Shown here piece by piece: positions 6,332 to 64,000 of a DNA stretch of 64,000 nucleotides. This DNA comes from Myxococcales bacterium (GTDB lineage Bacteria > Myxococcota > UBA727 > JABDBI01), in contig JAHFEF010000001.1 in the NCBI GenBank assembly GCA_023248545.1, positions 150,329 to 214,328 on the forward strand. Reading direction: 5' to 3'. Position 1 is the stretch's first letter. The number at the start of each line of letters is the position of its first letter. Under the pieces are notes generated by a model that ran no database searches, was not told where the DNA came from, and saw only the letters and a program-made list of their open reading frames with translations. The position numbers and the translations under genes were made by a program.

Positions 6332-6345
6332 AGAGGGTCGGTCAT

Positions 6346-21910: not shown

Positions 21911-21938
21911 CCATCTGAATCGTTAGAACCTGGATCCT

Positions 21939-25352: not shown

Positions 25353-25379
25353 ATAGGATTTACTGTTGCAATAACGATT

Positions 25380-26267: not shown

Positions 26268-26290
26268 AATTTGGTATCGAAGCTGGGTAA

Positions 26291-26332
26291 GCTATAGCCG
26301 TATTGCTTCTTGCGTAATATCCGCGCCTTTGA
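26291..26332. repeat. 42-bp direct repeat, copy A (upstream of the Cys-rich gene pair)
   Basis: ctatRgccgtattgcttcttgcgtaatatccRcgcctttgaa. Matches copy B at 40 of 42 positions. Confidence 0.7.
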
Positions 26333-44856: not shown

Positions 44857-44927
44857 AGAGAATCCTCCCATTTAAGGCCTCTTGCCCTGTATCTAATGTC
44901 TCTGGGGGATAATTGCCAAGAGGCGCG

Positions 44928-47364: not shown

Positions 47365-47391
47365 TTCACACGCTCAAGTTGTTGATGGGGG

Positions 47392-49404
47392 ATGCGATTT
47401 TATTTTGTGTCCCCCTTGTTGTTGGCTGGTTTATTAGGTTGCAGTGATTCTGCGAAGCTTCACTCAACGAGTTTCGCTTGTACTGATTCTGAGCAACCTA
47501 CGTGTGAGTTTCAAAGTGAGCCAAGTACTCAGCATGTTTTGGACCCGCTCACACCCGACGAACTCAAATTGGCTGTTGATATTTTGAAACAAGCTGGCCT
47601 GGTGGGGGGTACCTCCTATATCCAACTGCTGTCGACGCTGGAACCTGACAAAGCTTCAGAGGGTATGTATCCCAAGTTTGACAGTGTACCGCGCAAAGCG
47701 TTCGCGATCATCGTGAATACGAGCAACACGGACAAGTTTGAGTGCGTGATTGATTTGGAAAAAAAACAGCTCGAGAGCAAAACGGCCATCACAAGTGGGC
47801 AACCGGCGTTGTTATTTGTCGAGCAAATCAACGCCAAAAAAGCCATTGCGGCGGATGAACGCGTGATCAAAGCCCTGCGGGACAGGGGCCTGGATCCAAA
47901 ATATGTTTACGTCGAGCCTTGGGCGGCGGGGGATCTAAGTTTAGAACAGGATATTGATCGAACGCATCGGTTTATTCGCGGGACGATTTATTATCGACAA
48001 GATTCAATTAATCCTTATGCCAGGCCCATAGAGGGTATCAGCACGCTTTATGATGTCACGATGGGGAAAGTCTCTGTGCGAGATGCTGGCCAGACCCCGT
48101 TACATCCCAAAGCGCATGACTTTTTCAAGCAGTCTCAAAAAGCCGTTCCCCCGCCGGATGGGTTTACGAATACGCATCCCAATATCAAAGTTTCAGGACA
48201 ACAAGTGGAGTGGCGCGGTTGGAAGCTGCGTTTTCAAGTACACCCTCGAGAAGGGCTTGTTTTGTATGATATTTGGCGACAAGACAAGGGCGTTTACAAA
48301 CCCGTCCTCGAACGTGCGTCTCTGTCAGAGATGATCGTGCCTTATGCAGACCCCGATGATCAGTGGTTTTGGAAGTCGGCCTTTGACCAGGGTGAATATG
48401 GCATTGGAACAAACACGGACTCACTCATGCGTGGGGTGCATTTTCCGGTGACTGGGTTGGCATTTCCAGCGAATTTTTCGTCGGAAACAGGAGAGCTCAG
48501 TACGATTGACAATGCCGTGGCCATTTTTGAGAAAGACGCTTTCACGCTGTGGTCCCACTATGACTGGGATACGAATACGCAAAGCGCGCGAGCCGGCAAA
48601 GAACTCGTGATAGTGTCTTTCTTTACCGTCGGTAACTACGATTATGGTTTTCAATGGACGTTTAAAGAAGATGGTTCGATTGATTTTCAGCAGTTACTCA
48701 CTGGCGTGTTGTTAACCAAGGGCAGCAAAATCAAAAAATGCGGCCGTTGCGAAAATTTATCGCTTTTTTCAATCGGTGACCAATTTGGAACGGTGGTCGA
48801 TGAGAAGTTGATCGCCATTGCGCATCAGCATCACTTTAATATGCGATTGGATTTTGCGGTGGCAGGCGGCAAAAACAGCGTGGCTGAAATCACGCTGAAC
48901 AAAGCAGACCCGAGCGATAATACCCATGGCAATGCCTTTTTAATCAGCGAACGTGCATTACATACTGAGAAAGAATCTGTGAGCAAAGTGGTTCACAATC
49001 AAGCGAAGCACTGGTGGATTTATAACCGAGGGGTGAAGAATTCGTTGGGGCACTTTGCAGGATTTTTGCTCGAGCCCGGTAGAACCAGTGATTATTATGG
49101 CGCCGAGGGAGCGTCCGTTTTAGAGCGTGCGCCATTTTTAGAAAATAACTTCTATGTGACGAAATTTCACCCACGCGAAATGCATGCAGCGGGTGACTAC
49201 CCCAACCAAAGTGGCAACGACGGTATCCCCATTTGGATTTCAAAGCGCGATGCATCGATTCAACAACAAGATTTAGTGGTTTGGTACACACTGGGTGTGA
49301 CGCATTTGCCATGTGCAGAAGAATGGCCGGTCATGACTTTGCATCGGGCGGGCTTTACGATTCGACCGATGGGATTTCACGAGCAAAACCTATTGGTGGA
49401 GTGA
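47392..49404 (+). CDS. copper-containing (topaquinone) amine oxidase, lipoprotein
   Basis: Lipobox LLGCS. TPQ consensus TVGNYDYGFQW. Copper-ligand motifs AHQHHF and GVTHLP. Confidence 0.85.
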   Translation: MRFYFVSPLLLAGLLGCSDSAKLHSTSFACTDSEQPTCEFQSEPSTQHVLDPLTPDELKLAVDILKQAGLVGGTSYIQLLSTLEPDKASEGMYPKFDSVPRKAFAIIVNTSNTDKFECVIDLEKKQLESKTAITSGQPALLFVEQINAKKAIAADERVIKALRDRGLDPKYVYVEPWAAGDLSLEQDIDRTHRFIRGTIYYRQDSINPYARPIEGISTLYDVTMGKVSVRDAGQTPLHPKAHDFFKQSQKAVPPPDGFTNTHPNIKVSGQQVEWRGWKLRFQVHPREGLVLYDIWRQDKGVYKPVLERASLSEMIVPYADPDDQWFWKSAFDQGEYGIGTNTDSLMRGVHFPVTGLAFPANFSSETGELSTIDNAVAIFEKDAFTLWSHYDWDTNTQSARAGKELVIVSFFTVGNYDYGFQWTFKEDGSIDFQQLLTGVLLTKGSKIKKCGRCENLSLFSIGDQFGTVVDEKLIAIAHQHHFNMRLDFAVAGGKNSVAEITLNKADPSDNTHGNAFLISERALHTEKESVSKVVHNQAKHWWIYNRGVKNSLGHFAGFLLEPGRTSDYYGAEGASVLERAPFLENNFYVTKFHPREMHAAGDYPNQSGNDGIPIWISKRDASIQQQDLVVWYTLGVTHLPCAEEWPVMTLHRAGFTIRPMGFHEQNLLVE

Positions 49405-49406: not shown

Positions 49407-51353
49407 TCACCCAAGCACCAAAATCGCATCACCCGTCTTAATCGCACTGTTATCGTGCACCAAGATTTCCTGGACGGTTTTTATTGCCGTCCCCTCGTAT
49501 TTGAGGGGATGAAAGCATTTCATGACTTCGATGAGCCCGAGTGTGTCCCCAGGTTTTAAAACAGATCCGACTTGAACAAACGGCGGGTCTTTTGGACTGG
49601 CTCGTAAATAAAACAGACCATCCAATGGCGCTCGAATGATATCGCCTGCCTTCGCTGAAGCTACGGCAGGCAAGCCTGAATCTTCTTTTCCAAAGGGGAG
49701 GGGGAATTGAACAGCTCTTGCTTGTTGAACTGCCTCAAAATCATGCAAACTCCAGATTCTGGGGTTCTTGATGCGTCGATGGTTTTGCGCTTGATAGCAA
49801 CACTCGACCAAGCATTCTAAATAGTCACGCAGCTCGGCGAGTTTAACCACTTCGTCGGTGTCCATCTGCCCGGCAGCTTTGAACGGATCCATATCGGCTT
49901 CGATGCGTTCGGCCAACACTTGCATCTGGTCGACTTCACCCGGGCGTGTTTTGAACGCCCCGAGTGCCAGAGTTTTGCCTTCCATCACAGCCAGTCGGGA
50001 CAAACACGTCGATAATTGGATCACCGGGTCATAGGGCAGCCCCGCCATGGCATAATAGCCTGCTCCAGAAGCCTTGCGTAATAAAATAGTAATCAATGGC
50101 GTTTGGCTGATTGAGTTGGCGTAAATCAAACTCGAGCCATAGCCTAATAATCCCTGTTTCTCGGCTTCCAATCCGACGTCAAATCCAGAAACATCTTGGA
50201 GCCAAATCAGGGGGATGCCGTCGGCGTCACAGGCACGGCTAAACTGGGCGAGTTTCGCGACGCCTTCTTTGTATAAAATCCCCCCTGGGCGTTTTTGATT
50301 GGGATCTTTGGGGTGTGGCAACAGGCCTTGGGCATTGGCAGCGATGCCAACATAGAGACCGTTGATTTTGGCGATACCTGTGACGACTTCGTGCCCTGTA
50401 TCCGAAAATAATTCCCAAAATAAGCTGTCGTCGACCAGGCGAGCAATAACTTGCTTGATATCATAGGTTGGAAGCAGGAGTCCGGTAAGTTCTTCAGGGC
50501 TGAACGCCGGCTTGGAGGCCTCGACGCCATTTCGATAGTAAGACACAGCACTCGAGCAGCATTGGCTGATTTCTTCTCGGATGCGCGCCAAGCAAGTTTG
50601 ATCATCGGGGACCCGAAAATCTGCGCAGTTCGAGACGTGCACGTGAATGCTTGGGCCGCCGATATCGATGGAGCTTAAGTTCTGGCTTTTGGCGCCCTGA
50701 ATCAACGCTGCCCCGGCGATGACCATGTAGGCTTGTTCGGTCATGTAGACTTTGTCGGAGATGATCGGCATGTAGCCGCCGCCAGCGATGCAATCTCCAA
50801 AGACGCCGGCGATTTGAGGCACGCCGGCGTTGGAGAGTAAGCTGTTCATTTTGAAAATGTGCCCCGCGCCACGCTGGCCCGGGAACGTATGCGATTGTTC
50901 AGGCAAATACAGCCCCGAGCAATCGACCAAATAAATCACGGGCAGTTTGAGTTTGAGGGCGATTTCTTGGGCGCGAATTATTTTTTCAGGGGTTTTGGGC
51001 CACCAGGATCCAGAGGCTACCGTATTGTCGTTGGCGATAATTATACACCAACGGTCTTCAATTTTAATAAATCCCGTGATGACACCGGCTGCAGGAGCAT
51101 CTTTGTCTTCACCGCCGGATCTGACGAGGGTACCGATGGGGATAACCTCACCCAGTAATGCCAGGCGCTCCCACGTCGTTAACTTGCCCTTAGCATGCAC
51201 ACGCTCTTGGTATTTTTGGCCCCAGCCTTGTTTAATTGCTGAACGCTTTTGATCCAACAGCTGTTCTTTAGAATTAATTTGGGTCTGGTTTTCTAAAAAA
51301 GCAGCGTCTTTTGAAGCAGCTGATCCAATCGGGTTTAGAATCACTTTGGCCAT
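49407..51353 (-). CDS. acyl-CoA carboxylase carboxyltransferase subunit with C-terminal fused biotin-carboxyl-carrier domain
   Basis: PccB-like N-terminus ([15 protein letters not shown]) and carboxyltransferase core. C-terminal LIEVMKCF biotinyl-lysine motif. Confidence 0.85.
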
Positions 51354-52651
51354 GTGAAATCCTCAAAAAAGGCGCAAGAATATTGGCCTTTGATAAAATT
51401 TTTGTCTTGTACAATCGCTTGGTGTAATTTTTGCGTCGTGGGCACACCCTCGATCGTGAGTTCACCCAGGGCGTGTTGTAAATTTTTGATGGCTTCTGCG
51501 CGCGTTTTGCCGTGTGAGATTAATTTTCCCAGCATCGAGTCATAATAAGGCGTGACGAGCGTGCCTGTTTCTAAGTAGCTATCAAAGCGGCTATGTTTGG
51601 GGATTTTTAATTGGGTGACCGTGCCCGGTGCTTCGGCGTTGATTCGGCACTCTATCGCATGGCCTTGGGGGCCCTGATAGTGGATATCGAGATGCTCGCC
51701 GGCGGCGATTTTAATTTGCCAGGCAATCAAATCCAATCCTGTGACCCGTTCTGTCACGGGGTGCTCGACCTGAAGCCGGGTGTTCATTTCCATGAAATAT
51801 AAATTAGATTGGGCATCGAGCAAGAATTCGAGTGTTCCGGCACCCAGATAGCCGATTTTTGAAAGTGCTTGGATAATTTGTTGTCCCATCGAATTGCGCA
51901 GTGATTCAGGAAAATTCGGGGCAGGGGCTTCTTCGAGTAATTTTTGGTGCCGTTTTTGAACCGAGCACTCGCGTTCACCGAGGTGGATGATTGTTCCATA
52001 GGCATCGGCCAAGATTTGAAATTCGATATGCCTGGCTTTTTCGATGTATTTTTCAAGATAAAGCTCAGGATTTGAAAATGCTTTTTCGGCTTCGGTTCGG
52101 GCTTCTACATACGCCGCTGGCAACTCTTTGGCAGAGTGTACCAAGCGCATGCCTTTGCCGCCGCCGCCGGCCGTGGCTTTCAGCAGCACCGGGTAGCCCA
52201 GCTGTTTGGCCATTTCCAGCGCGTCGTGCTCAGATTCCAACAGCTTCGAAGAGCCTGGCAATACGGGCAATCCTGCGGCTTTCATGGTTTTGATCGCCGT
52301 GGCTTTGTCGCCCATCTGTCTGATTTGGTGCGGCTTCGGACCTATAAAAGTCAATTTTTGCTGTTCGCAGCGCGTCGCAAACAATGCATTCTCAGACAAA
52401 AAGCCATAACCAGGGTGAATCGCTTCGCAATCTGTTTCTTCGGCCGCTTTGAGCAGAGCGTCTTGGTTTAAGTAGCTTTTGGACGCCGGTGCTTCGCCGA
52501 TGCGTATCGCTTGTGCGGCTTGCTTGAGATAGCTTAGATGGGTATCCGCGTCGCTGTAAACACATACGGTTTCGATGCCGAGTTCTTGGCAGGTGCGTAA
52601 AATGCGAGCAGCAATTTCGCCGCGGTTGGCAATTAAAATGCGCCTAAACAT
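51341..52651 (-). CDS. accC: biotin carboxylase
   Basis: [17 protein letters not shown] and ATP-grasp motifs. 436 aa. Confidence 0.9.
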
Positions 52652-53231: not shown

Positions 53232-53660
53232 ATGGCAAAAATCAGCATCATCCAAGGTCCCAATCTGAACTTACTCGGCACGCGCGAGCCACATATCTAC
53301 GGACATTTTACGTTGCATGGCATCCATGAACAGCTCAAAAATGTTTTTGGATCGGCCCACCAGTTGGAGTTCTTTCAAAGCAATCACGAGGGGGCTTTGG
53401 TAGACGCGATTCACCGGGTGCAAGATCAAGATGGGTTGATCATCAATGCTGCGGCCTACACGCATGGCTCCTACGCGATTCGGGACGCCATCGCTGCCGT
53501 CGGTAAGCCGGCCATCGAGGTGCATGTGACGAATGTTTTTGCGCGTGAGGCTTTCAGGCATGAATCTGTGATTGCCCCCGTGTGCATAGGGCAGATCACG
53601 GGCTTTGGGGGCTACGGGTATGAGCTGGCGATGTTGGCTCTGCTGGAGCATTTGGCTTAG
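53232..53660 (+). CDS. aroQ: type II 3-dehydroquinate dehydratase
   Basis: ISIIQGPNLNLLGTREP and HVTNVFAREAFRHES. Confidence 0.9.
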   Translation: MAKISIIQGPNLNLLGTREPHIYGHFTLHGIHEQLKNVFGSAHQLEFFQSNHEGALVDAIHRVQDQDGLIINAAAYTHGSYAIRDAIAAVGKPAIEVHVTNVFAREAFRHESVIAPVCIGQITGFGGYGYELAMLALLEHLA

Positions 53661-54670
53661 GAGTCTGTCTTCAGGCCATGCCCAAACACCCAATAAAGCC
53701 ACATAAAAGACGGTACCAAGGCGATAGAACCAAGCCCTAGCGCTGCCAAAACGGGATTCAAAATCGCATGCGAAGCCGCACTGTCTAAGATGCTATGCGT
53801 ATCGACGATTAAATACGGAAATTGCGCCAGCGCCCAGCCGCCCATCATGCAGATCACTTGAATCATGCCAGCAATCTGGGCCGTTCGATCATACCCAAAC
53901 CAAAGTGCCCCAAAGACTGTCAGAGCCGCCAGACCTGTTGCAATCTGAAACTCCAAAGACCAAGTTTGATGCAGGAGAGCCTCATGGACGCCAGGAGCGC
54001 CTGTTTGGGCCGCCCACAAAGCTCCGAAAGCCGTCAGGCCGGTCAAAACAGCAAATATGAAAGCCCGGAATCGGAATGCTTGGTTTAGCTCTGGATCTGG
54101 CGCACGCTGCAGCAAATACAAAGAAGACAGCAGGGCACATAACCATAGCGTCAAAAAGCCGATTAAAAATGGGAACACCTGAAGCCAAGGGTGAATAAAA
54201 TAAGCGGCAAATTCAAAACCCGCTCCTTCGAGCGGAGAGGGTAGAACTGGGATCCGGCCCGAAGACAACGTGCCCAACGTGACACCCAGCATGAAGGGTG
54301 CCAGAATGCTGCCGATTGCAAATATCAAACTCCAGCGTTGTTTAGTCGACTCAGAATCATGCGTTCGAAATACGAATGCCGAGCCTCGTAACACAATCCC
54401 CACCAGCACCAACGTAATCGGGATGTGCAAGACAATGCTCATGGTCTCAAACACCGGCGGGAAACACACAAACAAGAGAACAATAATCAGAATCAGCCAG
54501 ACGTGGTTGGCCTCCCAGATCGGTGCTAATTGATCGGCGATGAGCGCGCGTTGTTTGCGCGTGGCCACGAGATCTAAGATTCCACCACCGAAATCTGCAC
54601 CGGCTGTTAGCATGTACACGCATAATGCTAAGAGCATGATCGCGGCTAGATAATATTCAGGCATCCACAT
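53657..54670 (-). CDS. cydB: cytochrome bd ubiquinol oxidase subunit II
   Basis: 337 aa multi-TM protein with DFGGG. Confidence 0.85.
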   Translation of the reverse strand: MWMPEYYLAAIMLLALCVYMLTAGADFGGGILDLVATRKQRALIADQLAPIWEANHVWLILIIVLLFVCFPPVFETMSIVLHIPITLVLVGIVLRGSAFVFRTHDSESTKQRWSLIFAIGSILAPFMLGVTLGTLSSGRIPVLPSPLEGAGFEFAAYFIHPWLQVFPFLIGFLTLWLCALLSSLYLLQRAPDPELNQAFRFRAFIFAVLTGLTAFGALWAAQTGAPGVHEALLHQTWSLEFQIATGLAALTVFGALWFGYDRTAQIAGMIQVICMMGGWALAQFPYLIVDTHSILDSAASHAILNPVLAALGLGSIALVPSFMWLYWVFGHGLKTDS

Positions 54671-55958
54671 GAAACACCCGCTTTTTGAGCAAATAAATCA
54701 CAACCACCCCCAACAACAGATACAGCGTTGAGAATAACAGAAACGGCACAACCAAATGAGGCATCGGTGTGATGGCCTCGGCCGTTCGCATCACGTGCCA
54801 AATAACCCATGGCTGACGGCCGACTTCAGTGACCACCCATCCGGTTTCAAGGGCGATAAAACCCAGTGGCGACGCCAAAACCAAGAGTTTCAGAAACCAC
54901 TTCAGTGAACTCCAAGATTTTTTGCGCCAGGTGAGAAAAGCACCCAGACAAGCCACGCCCAGCATTGCCAAACCCGACAGGACCATGATTTGAAAACTGA
55001 TGTGCAAAGGCCAAATGGGTGGCCGGTCTTCTTGGGGGAAACTTGTGATGCCCTGAACCGTCGCATCGAAATTTTCATACGCTAAAAAGCTCAGCATGTT
55101 GGGGATTTCAATCGCGTAGTCTGTTCTTTCTTGTGGCTCGTTTGGCCAGCCTAAGATCCTGAGTGGCGCTCCAGCTTGCGTATGCCACTGGCCTTCCATC
55201 GCAGCCAGCTTCAAAGGCTGATATTCGGCCACGTGTTCGGCGCTTAAATGCCCACTGAATAATTGAATGGGAATGGTGATGGCCCCTACCCAGAAGGCGA
55301 TTTGAATCGCTTTTTGGTGCAGCTGTGAACCCGGAGACTTGAGCAGGCCCAGTGCGTGTATGCCCGCGGCCGCAAAGCCTACAGAGACATAGGCCGCCAG
55401 CGTCATGTGAAGAGTCTGAGAAAAAGAAGCGGGATTCCACATGGCTTTGAATGGGTCAAACTGCGTCACAACGCCGTCTGCGAGTGTGAACCCCGCTGGC
55501 GCATTCATCCAGGCATTCGCACAGACCACAAAGATGCCCGATAAAGTGCCACTGATGAAAACAACTATGCCTGTGAGCCAGTGCGCTCGGGGCGAGATCC
55601 TGTCCCAGCCATAAAAATAGATGCCCAAAAATATTGCTTCTAAAAAAAACGCAAAGCCTTCCAGTGAAAAAGGCATACCAATAATCGGTCCAGCGAATTT
55701 CATGAAAGTGGGCCATAAAAGCCCCAGTTCGAATGATAAAGCCGTCCCAGAGACGGCGCCTACGGCAAACATAATGGCCGTTCCCTGGGCCCAGCGCTTG
55801 GCTAAATCGAGATAAACACGGTTTTGGGTTTTCAAATACAGGCCTTCCGCAATCATCATCAGCAAAGGCATCCCAATGCCCATCACCGCAAAGATAATAT
55901 GAAACCCCAAAGACATCGCCATCTGTGACCGGGCCGCCAAAATGTCGCTCATGATCAT
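54657..55958 (-). CDS. cydA: cytochrome bd ubiquinol oxidase subunit I (short Q-loop)
   Basis: 433 aa. N-terminal FHIIFAV...GLY. Overlaps the cydB start. Confidence 0.85.
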   Translation of the reverse strand: MIMSDILAARSQMAMSLGFHIIFAVMGIGMPLLMMIAEGLYLKTQNRVYLDLAKRWAQGTAIMFAVGAVSGTALSFELGLLWPTFMKFAGPIIGMPFSLEGFAFFLEAIFLGIYFYGWDRISPRAHWLTGIVVFISGTLSGIFVVCANAWMNAPAGFTLADGVVTQFDPFKAMWNPASFSQTLHMTLAAYVSVGFAAAGIHALGLLKSPGSQLHQKAIQIAFWVGAITIPIQLFSGHLSAEHVAEYQPLKLAAMEGQWHTQAGAPLRILGWPNEPQERTDYAIEIPNMLSFLAYENFDATVQGITSFPQEDRPPIWPLHISFQIMVLSGLAMLGVACLGAFLTWRKKSWSSLKWFLKLLVLASPLGFIALETGWVVTEVGRQPWVIWHVMRTAEAITPMPHLVVPFLLFSTLYLLLGVVVIYLLKKRVFHVDA

Positions 55959-56023
55959 AGAAATAGAGTGACAAACTCCCGATTGATAAGCAAACGAAAT
56001 TTGTTTTATGTTATTTTATATAT

Positions 56024-57742
56024 ATGAAGATAAATGATGCGATAATATATTTTTTAAGAGAATATGGAGTTAAATATATATACGGAGTAAGTGGTGCCAA
56101 TATTGAGCACATTCACGACTCGATTCACCGATTGGGCCAGGGCAAGTTGGTGTCGGTCATGTCCAAAAGTGAATCTGGGGCTGCTTTTATGGCCGATGCT
56201 CATGCGCGTGTGCATCACACGCTGGGCGTTTGCTGTGCGACTTCGGGGGGTGGCATGCTGAACCTATTGGTAGGCATTGCCGAGTCTTATATGGAGTCTG
56301 TACCCGTGTTGGCTCTGGTCGGGCAGCCACCGACGAGTTTAGAAGGCAAAGGTGCATTTCAGGATTCTTCAGGGTTTGAACGCAGCGTGAAAGGCGAGCA
56401 GCTGTGGGAGTCCGTGGCGAAGCACATGGTGAAGATCACGAAAGCAGAAGATTTCTGGCCTGAATTTTTGCTGGCGCTGCGTGTTGCTTTTGCTGGCCGT
56501 CCAGGACCCGTGGTGGTTTTGTTGCCTAGGGACGTCTATGATTTGGAAGTCCCAGAGCCTAACCCAGCCTGGATTGAGCAGCTTCAGGCGGATATTATCG
56601 CAACCCCAGTCTGTGAGCCGGCGATGGTGACGCGGGTGAGAGCAGCATTGATCGAAGCCAAAAAGCCAGTTTTGATTATTGGCCAGGGCATTCGTGGGTC
56701 ACCCAAATCAGATGCTGTGATTCAATTTGCCATCGAAACGGGGATTCCAGTGGCGACGACTCTGTCTTCTCGGGGAGATTACCCGAATAATCTACAAAAC
56801 TATTTGGGCATGATTGGCATGGCTGGGCATCCATCGGTGCACCAATATATTCAGCAAGAGGCGGATTTAATTTTGGTGGCAGGTTCGGGTTTGAGTGTGT
56901 TAAACCGAGGTCCATTGGGGCCTCGTTTAGATCACTCGAAGACGATTTTTATTAACATCGAAAGCAGTTCGATTCGTCATTCTTTTCCGAGAGCTCAAGT
57001 GGTAGAAGTCGACGTTGGGGACTTTTTTGAGCGTTTGTTTAAGCAGCGTGAGGGGCTCACGTGGCCGTTTCCTGCGAACTATAAACGCCAGGTCTACAAA
57101 CCCATATTGTCTAACTTGCCGGATCATCGAAACTGGGAGGGCAGCCTGCTGCAAAGCCAAGCCATATTGGCTCTGCAAGAAATTTTGCCGAATCATGGAC
57201 ACTTGTTGTTTGACGCTGGCAATTGTGCTGCCGCAGCGATGCATTACAGCCTGGTTCCGGCGCACACAACTTCGACGATTGCGCTCGGGATGGGTGGCAT
57301 GGGCTATTCAATTGGGGGCGCTATTGGAGCGCAGCTGGGCTCAGATGAGCATGCCCGAACGGTTGTTTTTGTAGGCGATGGAGCGTTTTTAATGTGCGGT
57401 CTCGAGATTCACACGGCGGTTGCACTCAAATTGCCGATTTTATACGTTGTTTTTAATAATAACCAACATGGCATGTGCACGACGCGGCAGCAGCTGTATT
57501 TTGAAGGCCGCTTGGAATGCGTGTCTTATCCTTGTGTTGATATTGCCCAGATTGCCCGAGGTCTTGGAAATAGCCAAAGCATTTGGACCGGGCAGGCCTC
57601 GAGTCTAGATGAGTTGCAAGATTGTCTGAGAGACTATCGTCAACACATGGAAGTGCCCGGTGTGCTAGATTTAAGAATCTCGCGAGAAGAAGTGCCGCCG
57701 TTTACAGCCTTCTTGCCACCCGATGCGGAGGTGATTGATTGA
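56024..57742 (+). CDS. thiamine-diphosphate-dependent enzyme (acetolactate synthase large-subunit-like)
   Basis: 572 aa. N-terminal Pyr domain (GVSGANIEH...HTLGVCCATSGGGMLN). C-terminal PP domain (VFVGDGAFLMCGLEIHTAV). Confidence 0.8.
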   Translation: MKINDAIIYFLREYGVKYIYGVSGANIEHIHDSIHRLGQGKLVSVMSKSESGAAFMADAHARVHHTLGVCCATSGGGMLNLLVGIAESYMESVPVLALVGQPPTSLEGKGAFQDSSGFERSVKGEQLWESVAKHMVKITKAEDFWPEFLLALRVAFAGRPGPVVVLLPRDVYDLEVPEPNPAWIEQLQADIIATPVCEPAMVTRVRAALIEAKKPVLIIGQGIRGSPKSDAVIQFAIETGIPVATTLSSRGDYPNNLQNYLGMIGMAGHPSVHQYIQQEADLILVAGSGLSVLNRGPLGPRLDHSKTIFINIESSSIRHSFPRAQVVEVDVGDFFERLFKQREGLTWPFPANYKRQVYKPILSNLPDHRNWEGSLLQSQAILALQEILPNHGHLLFDAGNCAAAAMHYSLVPAHTTSTIALGMGGMGYSIGGAIGAQLGSDEHARTVVFVGDGAFLMCGLEIHTAVALKLPILYVVFNNNQHGMCTTRQQLYFEGRLECVSYPCVDIAQIARGLGNSQSIWTGQASSLDELQDCLRDYRQHMEVPGVLDLRISREEVPPFTAFLPPDAEVID

Positions 57743-58737
57743 TGAACCGAGCTCATATTGTTGGCATTGCTAGATTTATGCCAGAACAAATTATTTATAA
57801 TACAGTTTCAGATGACCACGGTGAGTTTTTTAAGGCTCCCAAAGAACGCCGGTTTGCTTCGCCAAAATATTCGTCAGCAGACTTAGGTGTCTTGGCGCTC
57901 CAGAATCTCTTGAAACAAACCAATTTTAAAGCCGAAGATTTAGATTTGATTTTGGTTTCGTGTTCGATTCAAGATTTTGTGAATATTTCTGTTGGGCCGG
58001 ATATCCAATATCGATCGGGAGCGACCCGGGCCCAGGTGTTAAATATAGATACTGGCTGTGCGGCTTATGTGTCCATGTTGAACGTTGCCGACGCGTTTAT
58101 CAAAGCCGGTGTTCACAAAAATATCGCCATTGTGACGATTACTAATTTTATCTCGCGGCTGGCAGATTTTCAAAAATCGCCGCGTTCTCAAGTATTAGGA
58201 GATGGAGCCTCAGCAACTCTAATTATTCCGGGCGAGGCGAGCATCTTGGCCAGCGTGGAAGAGTCTCACGGAGAGAACTACCCTCTTTGGAAGTGTCGTC
58301 CCCATGGTCCATCGGGTGAGCCCCAGAACTATTGGGAAACCAACACGGGGCCATTGGAAGTCGAATTCGACGTCGAACAGATTGAAAAAATTAAAAAGAA
58401 CTCAATCGAATTGATAGTCAGTGCTGTCAACAAGAGCATCCAAAAAGCCGAGCTCACCAAAGACCAAATCGATTTTTTAATCACGCACCAGCCGAATCGG
58501 GGTTTGGTCCAAAAATGGCGCGATGGCATTGAGATCGATGTTCCCAGAGCGTTCGATACGTTCGAGCAATTTGGCAACCTGTTTCAGAGCTCGATTCCTG
58601 TGACACTGTCGGTTTTGATGGAGTCAGGGCGTTTGAAATCCGGGAATAAACTGGCGCTGGGGACGTTTTCAAATGCGGGAGATTTCGCGGCGGGGATGGT
58701 CTTGAATTTCCCGGGAGAGGGTCGTATGCCGGCCTGA
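57739..58737 (+). CDS. FabH-like 3-oxoacyl-ACP synthase III family protein
   Basis: Cys (DTGCAAYV), His (ITHQPNRG) and Asn (FGNLFQSSIPV) triad positions. Confidence 0.75.
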   Translation: MMNRAHIVGIARFMPEQIIYNTVSDDHGEFFKAPKERRFASPKYSSADLGVLALQNLLKQTNFKAEDLDLILVSCSIQDFVNISVGPDIQYRSGATRAQVLNIDTGCAAYVSMLNVADAFIKAGVHKNIAIVTITNFISRLADFQKSPRSQVLGDGASATLIIPGEASILASVEESHGENYPLWKCRPHGPSGEPQNYWETNTGPLEVEFDVEQIEKIKKNSIELIVSAVNKSIQKAELTKDQIDFLITHQPNRGLVQKWRDGIEIDVPRAFDTFEQFGNLFQSSIPVTLSVLMESGRLKSGNKLALGTFSNAGDFAAGMVLNFPGEGRMPA

Positions 58738-59555
58738 TGAATATTAATTCTGAATCGATTGTTCACGATCTCACCCAGATTCGACAGAAAAAGCCATTGA
58801 TTCACAACGTGACCAACTATGTCACGATGGAATGGGTTGCGAATGGCTTGTTGTCTTTGGGCGCTTCGCCCGTGATGGCCCATGCGCCTGAAGAAGTAGC
58901 AGATATTGTCAAAATTTCCGGGGCTCTGGTGATGAATATCGGAACGCTGAGTGCTCCGTGGGTTTCAAGCATGAAGCTGGCGCTTCAGGCAGCCAAGGAC
59001 TATGGAGTTCCTGTTGTACTGGACCCAGTCGGAGCAGGCGCGACGCCGTATCGAACCCAAGTCGCGCGTGATTTATTATCACAAGGTGGGGTATCAGTGG
59101 TGAGGGGTAACCCGTCTGAGATTTGCGCGTTGGCCGGCGGCAGTCCCACAACGCGGGGTGTCGAGACGTCGTTGTTGCCCAGTGAAGCTTGTGCTTCTGC
59201 GTCAAAACTCCACCAGGAGTTTGGGTGTGTGGTGGTTGCCAGTGGACCCGATGATTTAATCCTAGGGCCTGAACGTGCCATGCGGGTGTATAATGGCACA
59301 GCCATGATGGCGCGTGTGACGGGCATGGGCTGCTTGGTATCTGCTGTGATTGCTGCGTTTTGCGCGGTTCAAAAAGACCCGACGCTGGCAGCTGCACACG
59401 CCATGGCCTATTGCGGAATCGTGGGTGAACGAGCAGCAGTCAATATTCAAGGCCCTGGCTCTTATGCGGTCACGTATGTGGATTTATTGAGCGAGCTGAA
59501 AGAAGATTGGATTTCAAAATTACTGACGGTTGAGTCTCATGTCTCGCTGTCTTGA
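58737..59555 (+). CDS. thiM: hydroxyethylthiazole kinase
   Basis: LIHNVTNYVTMEWVANGLLSLGASPVMAH. Confidence 0.85.
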   Translation: MNINSESIVHDLTQIRQKKPLIHNVTNYVTMEWVANGLLSLGASPVMAHAPEEVADIVKISGALVMNIGTLSAPWVSSMKLALQAAKDYGVPVVLDPVGAGATPYRTQVARDLLSQGGVSVVRGNPSEICALAGGSPTTRGVETSLLPSEACASASKLHQEFGCVVVASGPDDLILGPERAMRVYNGTAMMARVTGMGCLVSAVIAAFCAVQKDPTLAAAHAMAYCGIVGERAAVNIQGPGSYAVTYVDLLSELKEDWISKLLTVESHVSLS

Positions 59556-60141
59556 TATTCGGTTGCAACTGGTGCTTGAAGACGGTCAAAATTATGACTG
59601 GTTGATTGGCGAGGCTGTTCGAGGGGGAGTGACTTGTGTGCAGTGGCGCCACAAGTTTTTGAATGATCGTGATTTTTATCATCGAGCTATTAATTTGAAA
59701 GCCATTTGCAGACGCCATCGGGTACCCCTAATTATCAACGACCGGGTGGATATTGCGCTGGCAATGGAAGCCGACGGAGTGCACCTGGGACAAAGTGATA
59801 TGCCGTTTGAAGTGGCACGGCGTCTGTTACCGGATTTTATGAGTATTGGCTTATCGGCGGAATGCTTCGAGGATGTTATGTCTGCCGAAAAATTAGACCT
59901 TGATTACTTGGCCATCAGCCCTGTATTCTCGACGCCGACGAAGACGGATACAGCTTCGTCGTTTGGTGTGGATGGTTTCAAGAAGGCGCGTGCAATGAGT
60001 CGACACAGATTGGTTGCGATTGGGGGTGTGAATGCGAAGAATGCCGCCCTACTTCGGCAAGCGGGTGCGGATGGCTTGGCTGTTGTGAGTGCAATTGGAC
60101 GAGCTGAGGCGCCGTACGAGGCGGCTAGGGGGATTTCATGA
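59530..60141 (+). CDS. thiE: thiamine-phosphate synthase
   Basis: [24 protein letters not shown]. Start probably the Met at 59542. Confidence 0.85.
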
Positions 60142-60929
60142 AACGCGTACTCACCCTAGCAGGTTCTGACTCAGGAGGCGGTGCCGGAATCCAGGCTGAC
60201 TTAAAGACTTTCATGGCATTAGGTTGTTATGGGGCATCGGCAATTACAGCGCTAACGGCTCAAAATACGTTGGGTGTTCGTGGAATCTTTCCTGTTTCAC
60301 CCAGTTTTGTCACCGATCAAATCGAAGCTGTATTAGAAGACATTGGCGCCGATGTGATTAAAATTGGCATGCTGTGTAATATGCGAATTATTGAGGCTGT
60401 TGCCCTATGTTTGAAGCGGTTTCCAGAAATCCCAGTAATTTTGGATCCCGTGATGATTTCACAAACAGGTCATGCTCTGTTAGAACCTGATGCCGTGATG
60501 GCTTTGCGCGAATATTTGTTTCCCAGAGCTTATTTGCTGACTCCCAATTTGGACGAAGCCAAAGCACTGGTGGGCGAGTTTGATGTCGAGAGCACGGCGC
60601 ATAAAATCTTGTCGATGGGGCCCAGAGCTGTCTTGGTAAAGGGCGGCCATCGGAATTCAAAAGCCTATGAGGCTGCACAAGACTATTTGTTGTGTTTTGG
60701 TAAAACCAAGGGGACTTATTTTGCGTCGCCCTGGATTAAAACGCGCAACACGCATGGCACTGGCTGTACGCTTTCGGCCGCGATTGCGGCTTATTTGGCG
60801 CAAGGCTTGTTATTGGTTGATGCAATCGGCGAAGCAAAATCGTATTTAAATGGCGCTTTAAATAAGGCCAGTGGCCAATCGGTCGGCGAAGGGGCAGGGC
60901 CTGTCTGTCATCATTGGAGAATCTTATGA
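60138..60929 (+). CDS. thiD: hydroxymethylpyrimidine/phosphomethylpyrimidine kinase
   Basis: [21 protein letters not shown]. Confidence 0.85.
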
Positions 60930-61615
60930 GAAAATGCTTGTTGGGTGTTTCTGTATTTTTAGCTTGTTATGCCGCACAGGCGGTGACTTTTTTCGAAATT
61001 GCGACGGCAGGAACACAAAAAAAACGAGAAGAAATTATTGCGAGCCAATTTGTTCAAGATATGTCAAAGGGCGTTTTGAGCCAAGCGCGATTTAGTTATT
61101 TCAAGACCGAAGATAAAAAATATGTTTGGCGCTACTCGGATAATTTGATGGTTTTAGCGGCCAAAGCAGGTGATTACAGAGTTCGATCATTTTTGCAACA
61201 AGCAGCCGTTGACTCGACCAAAGAATGGAATGGTCCTCGGCCGACGGATATGAGCCAGTGTCCTTCTTGCTTGGCTTACTCTAATTTTGAGGCGGCTTCT
61301 GTGGCTCATTCTTTTGCGGTTGGAATCGCTGCGCTTTTGCCGTGTTACACAGTTTATTGGGAAGTCGGAAATTGGCTGAAAGGACATTCGGTTCCCCACA
61401 ATCCCTACCAATTTTGGATTGACGCCTATTCTGAGCCTGGTTCCCATAAGCATGTCGAGGACATGGTTTCTTTTGCGAACGAAATTTATGAAATCAGTAC
61501 ATCTGAGGTCCGTGAAAGTATGCTGAGGGCCTATATTTTCTCGACGATCTATGAGCTGCAGTTTTTTGATAGCGCCTATAACTTGATTCAATGGGAGACG
61601 ACTCATGCGCAATAG
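60926..61615 (+). CDS. tenA: TenA-family thiaminase II / aminopyrimidine aminohydrolase
   Basis: AALLPCYTVYWEVG (catalytic Cys) and YELQFFDSAY align with B. subtilis TenA. Confidence 0.8.
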   Translation: MRKCLLGVSVFLACYAAQAVTFFEIATAGTQKKREEIIASQFVQDMSKGVLSQARFSYFKTEDKKYVWRYSDNLMVLAAKAGDYRVRSFLQQAAVDSTKEWNGPRPTDMSQCPSCLAYSNFEAASVAHSFAVGIAALLPCYTVYWEVGNWLKGHSVPHNPYQFWIDAYSEPGSHKHVEDMVSFANEIYEISTSEVRESMLRAYIFSTIYELQFFDSAYNLIQWETTHAQ

Positions 61616-62882
61616 CGATTTGTACTCCAGGGCCTGTCAAGTGATTCCCGGCGGCGTGAACAGCCCCGTACGGGCTTTTCAAGGCGTCGGTGGTACACCG
61701 GTGTTTATGAAACGCGGTGAAGGCTGTCATGTGTATGATTCCGAAAACAAGCGTTACACAGATTATGTGCTCTCGTGGGGGCCGTTGGTTTTAGGCCATG
61801 CGTATCCCAGCGTTGTAGAGTCTATTATTCAAACAGCACGGCTTGGCACCAGCTTTGGGGCGCCGACTGAGCTTGAAGTTGAGTTAGCCGAGCTCTTGGT
61901 GAACCAATTTGAGTCGATAGATAGGATTCGGTTTGTAAACAGTGGGACTGAGGCGACGATGAGTGCCCTGAGATTAGCGCGTGCTTATACTCAGCGAGAC
62001 AAGATCATCAAATTTTCTGGCAATTATCATGGCCACGCCGATATGTTGCTCGCTCAAGCAGGCAGCGGCCTGGCGACGCTCTCTATGAGTTCTTCAGCAG
62101 GTGTGCCAGAGAAGTCCGTCCAAGATACGCTGGTAGCGCCCTATAATAACTTAGACGTCGTCAGAGAATTATTTTCAGCCTATCCGGGTCAAATCGCTGG
62201 AATTATTGTCGAACCAGTGGCGGGCAATATGGGTTTAGTATTGCCGAAGCCAGAATTTTTGACAGGCCTGAAATCACTCTGTGAACAACACGGTGCTTTG
62301 CTGATGATGGACGAAGTCATGACCGGGTTCAGGGCGGCCCTGCCAGGGGCCCAAACTTATTTTGGTGTGGACGCCGATATAACTTGTTTAGGCAAAGTGA
62401 TCGGTGGTGGGTTACCGGTGGCTGCGTATGGGGGCAAGCGCAAAATCATGGAACAGGTGGCGCCGCTCGGGCCCATGTATCAAGCAGGGACTCTCTCGGG
62501 AAACCCCCTAGGTATGGCAGCGGGATTGGCGACGGTCAGGGCGCTGTTAAAGCCAGGCGTGTTTGAGAGCGCTGCGGCCCGATGCGAGCAGTTAGTCTTG
62601 GGCATTCGTGAGATGGCTGCTCAGAAAAAAATACCTGTCCAGGCGAGCTCTATGGGCACAATGTTTGGTCTGTATTTCTTGAAAGAGCCAGGCGAAATTT
62701 CTAATTACGAAGACGCCAAAAAATTAGTTGATTCAGAGCGTTATTCGAAGTTCTTTCACAAGATGCTGGAGCTGGGGCACTATTTTGCACCGAGCGCATT
62801 TGAGGCCGGATTTGTGAGTGCAGCGCATACTGAAAAAGATATTCACGAGACACTGGATGCAGTTTGCCAAGCTTTATTGTAA
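61605..62882 (+). CDS. hemL: glutamate-1-semialdehyde 2,1-aminomutase
   Basis: VIPGGVNSPVRAF. Aminotransferase class III. Confidence 0.9.
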   Translation: MRNSDLYSRACQVIPGGVNSPVRAFQGVGGTPVFMKRGEGCHVYDSENKRYTDYVLSWGPLVLGHAYPSVVESIIQTARLGTSFGAPTELEVELAELLVNQFESIDRIRFVNSGTEATMSALRLARAYTQRDKIIKFSGNYHGHADMLLAQAGSGLATLSMSSSAGVPEKSVQDTLVAPYNNLDVVRELFSAYPGQIAGIIVEPVAGNMGLVLPKPEFLTGLKSLCEQHGALLMMDEVMTGFRAALPGAQTYFGVDADITCLGKVIGGGLPVAAYGGKRKIMEQVAPLGPMYQAGTLSGNPLGMAAGLATVRALLKPGVFESAAARCEQLVLGIREMAAQKKIPVQASSMGTMFGLYFLKEPGEISNYEDAKKLVDSERYSKFFHKMLELGHYFAPSAFEAGFVSAAHTEKDIHETLDAVCQALL

Positions 62883-62891: not shown

Positions 62892-64000
62892 ATGCAAATT
62901 CAGATCGCTAAATTCGGTGGATCGTCGTTAAACGAATCGCGTTATATCGCCAAGGCCTGCGATATTATCCAACAAGCGCCCAAAGGCCTCGTGGTGGTTG
63001 TTTCTGCGATGGGTGGGATCACGGATTTATTATTGCAAACGCCGATCCCTGTTGGTATTTTTTTAGAGCGCCATTCCCAAGCTGCACATGAATTAGAACT
63101 TGGGGCTGATTTTCAGGCAGTGCTTGAGTCCGCGAAGAAAGATCTCAACGTGGCCCAAGGTGAGCGCGTGATGGCACAGTTGGTCACGGCGTTACTCAAA
63201 AAACGAGGCGTTCAAGCTGTTTATGTCGACGCACCCGAGATCATCAAAACACGCAACGGTCCAACAGGGCTGATTCACGACCCTGTTGAATGCTCAAAGC
63301 GTATTCAAGAAAAAATCAAGCCGTTGTTAGAAGCCGGCAAACTACCTGTCATACCTGGATTTATAGCGTCGGGTCCAGAGGGACAATGGGTGACCCTAGG
63401 GCGCGGCGGATCTGATTACACGGCGACCATTTTGGCCGCTTCTCTTTCCGCAGAACGCGTGACGCTCTATAAAGAGGTCGATGGGCTGCTCACCGCGGAT
63501 CCAAAATATGTACCCAAAGCTCAGCTGATTCCAGAACTCTCGTATCAAGAAGCTGCTGAGTTGTCTTTTTACGGCGCTAAAATCCTGCACCCCAGATCGA
63601 TTATTCCGCTGATTAAGCCGCGTATTCCCCTGTATCTCAAGAATACTTTTAGGCCGGAAATGCCGGGGACAAAAATTTCTCACGAGGTTTCGAAAAGCAG
63701 ATTGCCCGTGCGAGCACTCACGGCGATATTGGGTCAGTCGCTGATCTCTGTCGAAGGCTGCGGCATGATGGGTGTACCCGGCGTCGCTATGAGGACTTTC
63801 AAAGCCATGAGCGAGGCAGCTATTTCGGTGAGCTTAATTTCACAGGCGTCGAGTGAAGCGTCGATTTGTTTTACGATTCCAGCGACTGATCAGGTTCGGG
63901 CGCTCGATGCTCTCAAAAAGGAGTTTCAGTTTGAGCTTCAAAATCAAGTGATAGAGCGCGTTCAAGGCTTACAACAAGTTGCCATTGTGGCCGTCGTAGG
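62892..64000 (+). CDS. lysC: aspartate kinase (3' truncated by window end)
   Basis: MQIQIAKFGGSSL... Runs to the window edge and is not in the ORF table because it has no stop. Confidence 0.8.
   Translation, partial: MQIQIAKFGGSSLNESRYIAKACDIIQQAPKGLVVVVSAMGGITDLLLQTPIPVGIFLERHSQAAHELELGADFQAVLESAKKDLNVAQGERVMAQLVTALLKKRGVQAVYVDAPEIIKTRNGPTGLIHDPVECSKRIQEKIKPLLEAGKLPVIPGFIASGPEGQWVTLGRGGSDYTATILAASLSAERVTLYKEVDGLLTADPKYVPKAQLIPELSYQEAAELSFYGAKILHPRSIIPLIKPRIPLYLKNTFRPEMPGTKISHEVSKSRLPVRALTAILGQSLISVEGCGMMGVPGVAMRTFKAMSEAAISVSLISQASSEASICFTIPATDQVRALDALKKEFQFELQNQVIERVQGLQQVAIVAVV

Follow-up and report, generated by a model that had tools for sequence, protein, structure and literature searches.

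What are a ThDP-dependent enzyme and a KAS III homologue doing at the head of a thiamine salvage array? The first-pass annotation had raised this question for eight apparently co-transcribed genes at 56024-62882 of the window, as we call the whole 64-kb stretch of DNA analyzed, and had offered two answers: that the leading pair supplies a thiazole or pyrimidine precursor by synthesis or remodeling, or that it yields an acyloin-type product. Here we examine the pair, its neighbors and its relatives in other genomes with respect to both.

Layout of the array and its leader

The co-directional, overlapping array is present on the + strand, with seven genes in this interval and not eight; the aspartokinase gene begins beyond it.

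53657-54670, - strand: cydB, cytochrome bd oxidase subunit (Cyt_bd_oxida_I/II gene calls)
54657-55958, - strand: cydA, cytochrome bd oxidase subunit (Cyt_bd_oxida_I/II gene calls)
55959-56023, no strand: intergenic leader common to cydA and the ThDP gene, 65 nt, 26% G+C
56024-57742, + strand: putative ThDP-dependent carboligase of CqsB3/NzsH type, 572 aa, three TPP_enzyme domains
57742-58737, + strand: putative KAS III-like condensing enzyme of CqsB1/NzsJ type, 331 aa, ACP_syn_III and ACP_syn_III_C
58737-59555, + strand: thiM, hydroxyethylthiazole kinase (NF006830, 319 bits; cut-off 180)
59539-60141, + strand: thiE, thiamine-phosphate synthase (TIGR00693, 184 bits; cut-off 145)
60138-60929, + strand: thiD, HMP/HMP-P kinase (TIGR00097, 297 bits; cut-off 205)
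60926-61615, + strand: tenA-like thiaminase II / aminopyrimidine aminohydrolase (PF03070, TENA_THI-4, 57 bits; cut-off 22)
61605-62882, + strand: hemL, glutamate-1-semialdehyde aminomutase (TIGR00713, 594 bits; cut-off 527)
62892-64000, + strand: aspartokinase, AA_kinase and ACT domains, cut by the window end

Three of these reading frames open slightly upstream of the starts given, at 57739 (TTG; ATG of the KAS III-like gene at 57742), 59530 (TTG; likely ATG of thiE at 59539) and 60914 (tenA). Overlaps occur at all six junctions of the array (in order, TGATG, TGATG, 17 nt, ATGA, ATGA and 11 nt), with the thiM ATG overlapping the KAS III stop and the thiD start overlapping the thiE stop. The pair and thiM-thiE-thiD-tenA now form one translationally coupled array. 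No promoter-like or terminator-like site separates the KAS III gene (57739-58737) from thiM, the boundary at which the first-pass annotation had suggested looking for a break, and neither kind of site is enriched (promoter-like, 12 observed versus 9.0 ± 3.1 expected; terminator-like, 14 observed versus 8.9 ± 2.9 expected).

The overlaps do not set this array apart, since overlapping or abutting genes make up 17 of the 34 same-strand neighbor pairs in the window, and the coding share of the window is about 95%. Such density speaks for a neutral reading, in which the pair and the thi genes are unrelated, were packed together by a compact genome and are kept by descent rather than by selection. 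The end of the array speaks for it as well: hemL, which is functionally unrelated to the rest, overlaps tenA, and aspartokinase starts 9 nt past hemL.

The thiM-thiE-thiD-tenA module led by the two enzymes was assigned as first annotated, with scores above cut-offs for its thi genes. The tenA product carries the LLPCY motif with the active-site cysteine, has a signal-peptide-like N terminus, scores 82 bits against TIGR04306 (under the cut-off of 130) and evolves fast, with 37-39% identity to its counterparts in three relatives (L103, L104 and L002). The Staphylococcus aureus tenA-thiM-thiD-thiE operon (PMC2766623) likewise unites HET kinase, HMP/HMP-P kinase, thiamine-phosphate synthase and thiaminase II. 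By comparison, the window operon has the order thiM-thiE-thiD-tenA, lacks a TPP riboswitch, encodes a TenA with a signal-peptide-like N terminus, is headed by two non-thiamine genes and is trailed by unrelated ones.

The AT-rich leader has the length first reported, and the region 55959-56023 leaves too little room for a TPP riboswitch. In agreement with the earlier reading, an Rfam scan of the entire window gave no match to RF00059 or any other family at gathering score, nor was there a match in 55700-56300 even at E<=10. Of the five relatives that share the arrangement, L002, L018 and L019 were scanned as well and likewise gave nothing at gathering score. A leader motif, TAAGCAAACGAAAT...TTTTATGTTA, is kept in L018 too, and TTGATA-18-TATGTT at 55983-56012 is a weak promoter-like match that is not significant taken alone.

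Family of the two leading enzymes

The first-pass names for the pair, an ALS-like ThDP enzyme and a FabH-like KAS III, stand as far as ThDP dependence and KAS III homology are concerned. An explanation by housekeeping, with an acetolactate synthase for branched-chain amino acids beside the cell's FabH, could appeal to the best NCBIfam names (acetolactate synthase large subunit and beta-ketoacyl-ACP synthase III), with which the source databases agree. However, every score is at most about half its curated cut-off: 260 bits for the ThDP enzyme against TIGR00118 (cut-off 538), and 134 bits for the KAS III-like enzyme against TIGR00747 (cut-off 292; 134-140 versus 249-292 across NCBIfam models). 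True ALS-like loci are only 24-32% identical and form the outgroup in 200 of 200 bootstraps, and ilvN, ilvC and fab neighbors are absent. Acetolactate synthase and FabH identities were rejected on these scores and, for the former, on the outgroup position; we regard the housekeeping explanation as scarcely credible.

Among solved structures, the closest to the ThDP enzyme is BbmA (PDB 8x3x, E 3.9e-72; also 8x3y and 8xod), together with CsmA (8x3z). BbmA matches over the full length (residues 10-559) and shares the three-domain ThDP fold, but its match is much weaker than those of CqsB3-type homologues. At E<=1e-30 the ThDP enzyme has 1784 homologues; among the 120 listed, identities are 48-79% and the sources are largely secondary-metabolite producers.

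By homology, the leading pair belongs to the CqsB3/NzsH plus CqsB1/NzsJ family of bacterial carbazole-forming enzymes, and the ThDP enzyme is placed among carbazole-type acyloin synthases, apart from ALS. The reactions of NzsH, NzsJ and NzsI (CqsB3, CqsB1 and CqsB2) in carquinostatin and neocarazostatin biosynthesis are described in a review that lists Sorangium cellulosum and Scytonema tolypothrichoides among the carriers (PMC7466098). Family membership is anchored on these literature-named carrier homologues and on an adjacent CqsB2 match, not on the CqsB1, CqsB3, NzsH or NzsJ sequences themselves. The window ThDP enzyme is 55% identical to its Scytonema counterpart (L004) and 52% to that of Sorangium So ce56 (L014), and the KAS III-like enzyme 51% and 48%, respectively. 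As in the CqsB machinery, the two genes are adjacent and catalytic residues are kept (Glu50 and the GDG...NN ThDP motif in the first product, Cys107-His250-Asn280 in the second). A KAS III gene adjoins the ThDP gene in all in-family loci with enough flank, and most of these also encode a protein of about 223 aa; for the Scytonema 223-aa protein, the match to the solved structure of carbazole synthase CqsB2 (6ipv) has E 1.8e-76.

A second family also pairs a TPP acyloin synthase, CybE, with CybF, a KAS III-like furanolide synthase annotated as 3-oxoacyl-ACP synthase, in the pathways to cyanobacterin, nostoclide, maculalactone and (as proposed) deoxyenhygrolide; here a butenolide would arise from two 2-oxo acids and cinnamoyl- or coumaroyl-CoA. 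The two genes are co-localized, in myxobacteria among others (PMC13288894, PMC8777810, PMC12395478). The core set of that pathway is CybB, CybC, CybE and CybF, whereas the window lacks CybB and CybC, and neither an ammonia lyase nor a CoA ligase turned up in it. CybE and CybF measure 623 and 376 aa against 572 and 331 aa in the window, nearly all of the best 120 KAS III relatives have 300-346 aa, and the close relatives of the pair adjoin CqsB2-type cyclases, not CybB/CybC. We consider a furanolide module improbable, a distinction drawn from size and gene context.

Conservation of the block in related genomes

The same gene order recurs in five related genomes (L018, L103, L104, L002 and L019; six with the window). 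The arrangement of TPP enzyme, KAS III and thiMED is thus not a one-genome accident. Its thi linkage is seen in one lineage alone, which is monophyletic in 200 of 200 bootstraps of the ThDP-enzyme tree and 198 of 200 of the KAS III tree, where the window lineage, L020 and L022 form one clade (196 of 200). Members of the clade in which the window lineage nests have an adjacent CqsB2 homologue, as L020 does. In the window lineage, by contrast, thiM directly follows the KAS III gene in all six genomes, and no cyclase gene was found in the six thi-linked loci or anywhere in the 64-kb window. In this lineage the module descends from an ancestral locus that included a cyclase gene, and that gene has since left the locus. 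A CqsB2 homologue appears to persist elsewhere in one relative: P0247, 63% identical to the L020 cyclase, is recorded on a contig whose length, 929,517 bp, is also that of the L104 contig, so that the two seem to share one contig.

The pair differs from the CqsB machinery (PMC7466098) in further respects. Its locus has no tryptophan-deaminating enzyme (aminotransferase or dehydrogenase), dedicated ACP, second KAS III, prenyltransferase or P450; the pair is flanked by cydAB and thiM in the core genome and is not part of a secondary-metabolite gene cluster; and its host is an uncultured Myxococcota-like lineage of about 49% G+C.

How much of this conservation reflects selection? The ThDP and KAS III genes are under purifying selection as strong as that on the thi genes (dN/dS 0.04-0.09 for the pair, a range shared with the thi genes and cydA). 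For neutral adjacency, the unrelated cydAB, divergently transcribed from the array, is likewise conserved next to the block (72-100% identity) in the five genomes with upstream contig sequence, the L103 contig starting at the ThDP gene. Downstream, hemL belongs to the window array but is not a conserved member as first grouped: purB holds its position, abutting tenA, in L002 and L019. In L104 the array goes on through a bifunctional aspartokinase/homoserine dehydrogenase gene, thrB and thrC. The thi linkage, moreover, occurs in a single monophyletic lineage. Given two rearrangement breakpoints among some 20 junctions, it is not improbable that both missed the block by chance; our own estimate is about 0.4. 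Against neutral adjacency, the block is intact across about 35% protein divergence while both flanks have altered, the ancestral partner cyclase gene was displaced from the exact position that thiM now holds, and the downstream genes supply a cofactor that the first gene product requires. Neutral adjacency is a tentative reading, if far from a negligible one.

Likely chemistry and the link to thiamine

The proposal that the pair makes a thiazole or pyrimidine precursor for ThiM or ThiD, in place of the thiG or thiC routes, draws on its co-transcription with thiM, thiE, thiD and tenA in six genomes and on our chemical reasoning that pyruvate and a C4 2-oxo acid could give, on paper, the five-carbon skeleton of hydroxyethylthiazole. 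It also agrees with the outcome of a Pfam search, in which the remaining window ORFs with 90 aa or more yielded no ThiC, ThiG, ThiF or ThiL. The reported absence of thiC and thiG is borne out within the window, and no thiS was seen there, although ThiS (about 66 aa) is under the size threshold of this search. A 64-kb window, however, says nothing on thiC or thiG in the rest of the genome, and no sulfur-transfer or C-N-forming enzyme lies alongside the pair. The family is a secondary-metabolite module, widespread in Sorangium, Streptomyces, Scytonema and metagenomic loci that have no thi genes, and the CqsB2-type cyclase in at least one lineage member points to retained ancestral chemistry. We judge a precursor-making role very unlikely.

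Homology instead supports the acyloin-type alternative, and we lean toward reading the pair as a two-enzyme carbazole-type module that is now coupled to thi salvage and whose product is not a thiamine precursor. [quoted passage not shown] The predicted product is an acylated acyloin, a secondary or specialized metabolite. In characterized carbazole systems the ThDP enzyme uses pyruvate and indole-3-pyruvate, and CqsB1 and CqsB2 must act in concert, as the intermediate otherwise rearranges. Because the cyclase is absent from the locus, the product here may therefore not be a carbazole; a carbazole-like ring could form from the acylated acyloin, should it be a substrate of the unlinked CqsB2-type cyclase of the one relative.

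In conclusion, the novelty of this locus lies in its gene arrangement, the component enzymes and thi genes being already known. Chemistry ties the two halves together at one point only, the cofactor, which the first enzyme uses and the later genes help to provide. The thiamine link is probably a matter of cofactor economy or of neutral packing in a compact genome; we slightly favor the former, in which co-transcription would let a ThDP-requiring enzyme be expressed in step with ThDP salvage.

Composition of the gene array

An ORF call places seven plus-strand ORFs in 56024-62882, headed by a thiamine diphosphate (ThDP) enzyme gene and a KAS III-like gene (hereafter, the pair).

Genes of the array, with domain content or model scores against cut-offs
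56024-57742, + strand, ThDP enzyme; three TPP_enzyme domains, 572 aa
57739-58737, + strand, KAS III-like; ACP_syn_III and ACP_syn_III_C, 331 aa
58737-59555, + strand, ThiM; 319 against an NCBIfam cut-off of 180
59530-60141, + strand, ThiE; 184 against an NCBIfam cut-off of 145
60138-60929, + strand, ThiD; 297 against an NCBIfam cut-off of 205
60914-61615, + strand, TENA/THI-4 protein (TenA); Pfam 57 against 22 (passed), TIGR04306 82 against 130 (failed)
61605-62882, + strand, HemL; 594 bits, above the cut-off of 527
from 62892, + strand, aspartokinase; outside 56024-62882, runs off the window end

The first-pass annotation had described a thiamine salvage operon of eight genes in this interval. 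Its co-directional, tightly set genes and its thi salvage module stand, but the count is seven, the eighth gene being the aspartokinase gene that begins beyond the interval. ThiM, ThiE, and ThiD score above curated cut-offs and TenA above the Pfam cut-off only; the PCY active-site motif of TenA aligns with that of Bacillus TenA. With the likeliest starts, the successive junctions are TGATG, TGATG, a 17-nt overlap, ATGA, ATGA, and an 11-nt overlap, and the start of the KAS III gene overlaps the stop codon of the ThDP gene. In consensus scans, promoter-like and terminator-like sites were not in excess, and the KAS III/thiM junction, where such a site would part the pair from the thi genes, has none. 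Tight boundaries are the rule in the window, with 17 of 34 same-strand neighbor pairs overlapping or abutting and about 95% of the sequence coding, and they therefore say little on shared function.

The leader comprises 65 nt of 26% G+C and is common to the divergent cydA. The array is without a riboswitch, in agreement with the earlier reading: neither RF00059 nor any other Rfam family matched at gathering score in the whole window or in the related loci L002, L018, and L019, and no Rfam match was obtained even at E<=10 in 55700-56300, which includes the region around 55900-56100 in which a TPP riboswitch was to be sought.

The TenA homologue has further peculiarities. In the window (60926-61615) and in L002 and L019 (14919-15596 in both) it has a conserved hydrophobic, signal-peptide-like N terminus (MKLIIACILFASWSLFA in L002), which Bacillus TenA does not have, together with a lineage-specific QCPxC motif. 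It also diverges far more quickly than the proteins encoded beside it, with 37-39% identity between sub-lineages vs 64-84% for ThiM and ThiD. Judged from these sequence features, it may be an exported thiaminase II.

Family membership of the two leading genes

Identification of the leading proteins as acetolactate synthase (ALS) and FabH was rejected because all curated-model scores are far under cut-off. The ThDP enzyme scores 260 bits vs 538 against the biosynthetic ALS model TIGR00118, with other ALS models also far below, and the KAS III-like protein scores 134 vs 292 (TIGR00747) and 140 vs 249 (NF006829) against FabH models. The ThDP enzyme has 1784 homologues at E<=1e-30, and the 120 listed, which are 48-79% identical, come from Sorangium, Streptomyces, Kitasatospora, Saccharothrix, Nostoc, Scytonema, Moorena, and many metagenomes. 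It is 55% identical over 580 aa to its counterpart in the Scytonema locus L004 and 52% to that of Sorangium So ce56 (L014), and the corresponding values for the KAS III-like protein are 51% and 48%. Catalytic residues are retained in both, namely Glu50 and the GDG...NN motif in the ThDP enzyme, and Cys107, His250, and Asn280 in the KAS III-like protein.

Wherever the flanking sequence of an in-family locus is long enough, a KAS III homologue adjoins the ThDP gene (Scytonema L004, six Sorangium chromosomes, Streptomyces L011, and L012, L020-L023, L025-L028, and L102), and at least 20 pairs of ThDP and KAS III matches from two protein searches are recorded on longest contigs of equal size. Most in-family loci contain a third conserved gene, encoding a protein of about 223 aa without a Pfam domain; the Sorangium and Scytonema proteins are 72-74% identical to each other. 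Against the solved carbazole synthase CqsB2 (PDB 6ipv), the Scytonema protein gives a match at 1.8e-76. In carbazole biosynthesis, the KAS III-like NzsJ/CqsB1 condenses the acid made by the ThDP enzyme NzsH/CqsB3 decarboxylatively with 3-hydroxybutyryl-ACP, and NzsI/CqsB2 closes the A ring; Streptomyces cattleya, Sorangium cellulosum, and Scytonema tolypothrichoides are named as organisms with the conserved trio (PMC7466098). The Sorangium cellulosum and Scytonema tolypothrichoides carriers correspond to loci L014 and L004. Bootstrap neighbor-joining trees (about 25 sequences, 200 replicates) place the ThDP enzyme in an in-family clade apart from ALS-like proteins in 200/200 replicates. By homology and neighborhood, the pair thus belongs to the carbazole-type CqsB3/NzsH and CqsB1/NzsJ family, membership being judged against homologues from the literature-named carriers rather than against CqsB3/CqsB1 or NzsH/NzsJ themselves.

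The Scytonema locus had initially prompted the working idea that the pair is the CybE/CybF module of furanolide biosynthesis, the core of which likewise has an adjacent TPP enzyme and KAS III-like gene. CybE and CybF are, however, larger (623 and 376 aa, compared by size with 572 and 331 aa in the window), and the furanolide core also includes CybB (ammonia lyase) and CybC (acyl-CoA ligase), neither domain of which was found in the window by the Pfam sweep. Moreover, close relatives of the window pair adjoin CqsB2-type cyclases. Given the match of the third conserved gene to CqsB2, and as the same organisms are named in the review (PMC7466098), we retain the carbazole-type assignment and regard the furanolide module as a more distant analogue.

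The closest solved structures are BbmA/CsmA, for which a literature search gave nothing relevant. A metagenome scan with the KAS III protein gave no relative, and one with the ThDP alignment gave mostly true ALS and eight in-family loci, none from the lineage described below. The Legionella MAG locus L016 is cut within the ThDP gene and is uninformative.

In one subgroup of cyclase-linked KAS III homologues (L025, L027, L012, and L026), Asn replaces the catalytic His (TNQPN vs THQPN), and in L012 two CqsB2-like genes flank the pair. CqsB2-type proteins of 41-49% identity are annotated in Bdellovibrio sp. qaytius, Bacteriovorax and Bacteriovoracaceae MAGs, Legionella dresdenensis, and a Blastocatellia MAG, and relatives of the KAS III-like protein and ThDP enzyme occur also in Tatlockia and Legionella MAGs. 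Carbazole-type machinery seems to be much more widely spread than the actinomycete literature implies.

The thi-linked lineage and the location of the cyclase gene

The gene order ThDP-KAS III-thiM-thiE-thiD-tenA, which the first-pass annotation had seen in the window, is kept in five further contigs (L018 is cut within thiD), and these form with the window what we call the thi-linked lineage. Its Myxococcota-like label derives from the depositors' MAG titles.

Members of the thi-linked lineage, with identity of the ThDP enzyme to that of the window
L018, 79%, Logan contig
L103, 78%, JGI contig
L104, 72%, GCA_040384225.1, 'Myxococcota bacterium'
L002/L006, 66%, GCA_964635635.1, 'uncultured Myxococcaceae'
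L019, 64%, GCA_964484075.1

The translationally coupled array is conserved in six genomes. Its KAS III and thiM genes have no spacer (0 nt) in the window, whereas L018 and L103 have one of 27 nt, L104 one of 31 nt, and L002 and L019 one of 45 nt. Downstream of tenA, the window and L103 have hemL and ask, L104 has hemL, ask/hom, thrB, and thrC, and L002 and L019 have purB; since these genes differ among relatives, hemL falls outside the conserved unit. The lineage is monophyletic in 200/200 bootstraps for the ThDP enzyme and 198/200 for the KAS III-like protein, and in both trees it falls within the carbazole-type clade. Its KAS III-like proteins group with those of the outgroup loci L020 and L022 in 196/200 bootstraps.

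Both pair genes are under purifying selection, with dN/dS of 0.04-0.09 in the L018/L103 and L002/L019 comparisons, values that match those of thiM, thiE, thiD, and cydA; the analysis was restricted to these closer pairs because synonymous divergence is saturated in most comparisons involving the window. The pair is better conserved between L018 and the window (79-80% identity) than are thiM and thiE (70-77%). On this sequence evidence, the two are constrained, working genes with core-like behavior rather than a decaying gene-cluster remnant.

A CqsB2/NzsI cyclase (about 220-240 aa, Bet v1-like) in the same cluster is the mark of a carbazole cluster, and none is present at the locus. tblastn with four CqsB2 homologue queries gave nothing in the window (best E 0.014), and no CqsB2 homologue was found by tblastn in the L002, L018, L019, L103, and L104 loci, in which thiM is directly 3' of the KAS III gene as in the window. 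The cyclase gene is in this same position in L020, and L022 and L021 have the pair only. Because the lineage's KAS III groups with L020/L022 and L020 has an adjacent cyclase, the ancestor of the lineage most likely had a cyclase beside the pair.

A search with the L020 cyclase returned P0247 ('V4534_04470 [Myxococcota bacterium]'), a 221-aa protein 63% identical to the query and recorded on a 929,517-bp contig. The contig carrying L104 is exactly 929,517 bp, and because of this identical size an unlinked cyclase is very probably kept in at least one lineage member. P0247 is beyond the 21-kb L104 stretch, which separates it from the KAS III gene by more than 10 kb. The cyclase gene is therefore unlinked, rather than demonstrably missing from the genome. 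None of the matches in this search was recorded on a contig as long as that of the window (227,255 bp), of L002 (202,486 bp), or of L019 (35,103 bp), when exact lengths were compared. Among ORFs of at least 90 aa, the array and its neighbors contain no tryptophan aminotransferase/dehydrogenase and no ACP plus KAS III for 3-hydroxybutyryl-ACP, although an ACP would be smaller; the only aminotransferase there is the true hemL at 61605-62882. An acyl-CoA carboxylase pair (carboxyltransferase and biotin carboxylase; 49407-52651, opposite strand, 3-6 kb upstream), conserved in L104 (1-2248), is probably housekeeping and possibly an extender-unit source.

Several features of the surroundings deserve mention. 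The cytochrome bd oxidase genes cydBA are divergent from the ThDP gene, and the short, AT-rich spacer between them measures 48-92 nt in the window (53657-56023), L018, L104, and L002, and 92-194 nt in L019, depending on the cydA start; this makes five of the five members with upstream sequence, the L103 contig beginning at the ThDP gene. In the nearest outgroups, L020 and L022, purD takes the place of cydBA. The products of CqsB2 are ortho-quinone carbazoles, and a link to respiration is conceivable. In L104 (13855-20987) the array runs on through hemL, a bifunctional aspartokinase/homoserine dehydrogenase gene, thrB, thrC, a cytochrome c assembly gene, and hemA. In L022 (13064-17760), ask/hom, thrB, and thrC lie on the opposite strand just downstream of the pair, which hints at an old shared neighborhood. 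In L019 (19264-20253), about 4 kb downstream of tenA, hemL is seemingly in two fragments, a pseudogene or an assembly error.

Elsewhere in the window, 5051-7338, 31233-33074, 42973-44871, and 46624-49404 encode a set of eukaryote-like or secreted-type proteins, comprising a papain-family C1 protease, a STIG1/B-lectin-like protein, a leishmanolysin (M8), a collagen-repeat/DUF7151 protein, a Bax-inhibitor-like protein, and a copper amine oxidase. Together with a 987-aa ankyrin-repeat protein encoded in L002, this set suggests a predatory or host-associated lifestyle. A stretch of about 957 nt without an ORF of at least 90 aa (25353-26309) precedes a pair of large ORFs (960 and 584 aa, to 30956) that abut each other and lack a Pfam match at E<=1e-6. 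An AbiEi/AbiEii toxin-antitoxin pair, a BrnA-like antitoxin, and two AAA_14/DUF4143 ATPases are encoded in 20-1569, 3240-4484, and 21467-23057, and an AAA_14 gene is also found downstream of purB in L002.

Proposed function and significance

By analogy with characterized homologues, the KAS III-like enzyme would condense the acid made by the ThDP enzyme with an acyl thioester, and the product would be a specialized metabolite, possibly cyclized by an unlinked CqsB2 homologue. Cotranscription with thiM, thiE, thiD, and tenA might serve cofactor economy, as the first enzyme is ThDP-dependent and the products of the later genes salvage ThDP precursors. The main rival to cofactor economy is neutral packing, with the pair and the thi genes merely strung together. 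In agreement with such packing, the overlapping array also contains the unrelated hemL, ask, thrB/thrC, and purB, the adjoining cydAB is conserved to the same extent, and the pair-thi linkage has a single origin.

The first-pass annotation had also raised a possible role of the pair in making or remodeling a thiazole or pyrimidine precursor. We found no evidence for this: the family is widespread without thi genes, and a sulfur-transfer or C-N-forming partner of the pair is absent. A Pfam search of all other window ORFs with 90 aa or more gave no ThiC, ThiG, ThiF, or ThiL. The reported absence of thiC and thiG accordingly holds for these ORFs but is uninformative for the rest of the genome, and as 64 kb says nothing on the latter, it does not support a precursor role. 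We consider it highly improbable that the carbazole-type pair has been co-opted for a thiamine-related job and that its fusion to thiMED-tenA is an adaptation and not an accident; a pair so co-opted might supply a precursor or analogue for ThiM, ThiD, or ThiE, or might tie salvage-gene expression to ThDP status via the ThDP-binding first enzyme. No new thiamine route is revealed by our results.

Both parts of the array are already known: the ThDP/KAS III pair is of the carbazole type, and the thiamine salvage module is a standard one. Our literature search gave no description of a thi-carbazole linkage or of such a pair leading a thiamine salvage operon, and the pair split from its cyclase, or embedded in the core genome, was not found described either. 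The strongest reason for a further look is the combination of housekeeping-like conservation, an uncultured host lineage, and a product yet to be found. If the assignment holds, the carbazole machinery has a ThDP/KAS III half that can exist apart from the cyclase, can resemble a core gene, with purifying selection of housekeeping strength, in an uncultured Myxococcota-like lineage, and can be wired into a cofactor-salvage operon. The array would then represent a rare physical fusion of a cofactor-supply operon with a consumer of that cofactor, and would point to an acyloin- or carbazole-derived metabolite, possibly a new one, from uncultured bacteria.
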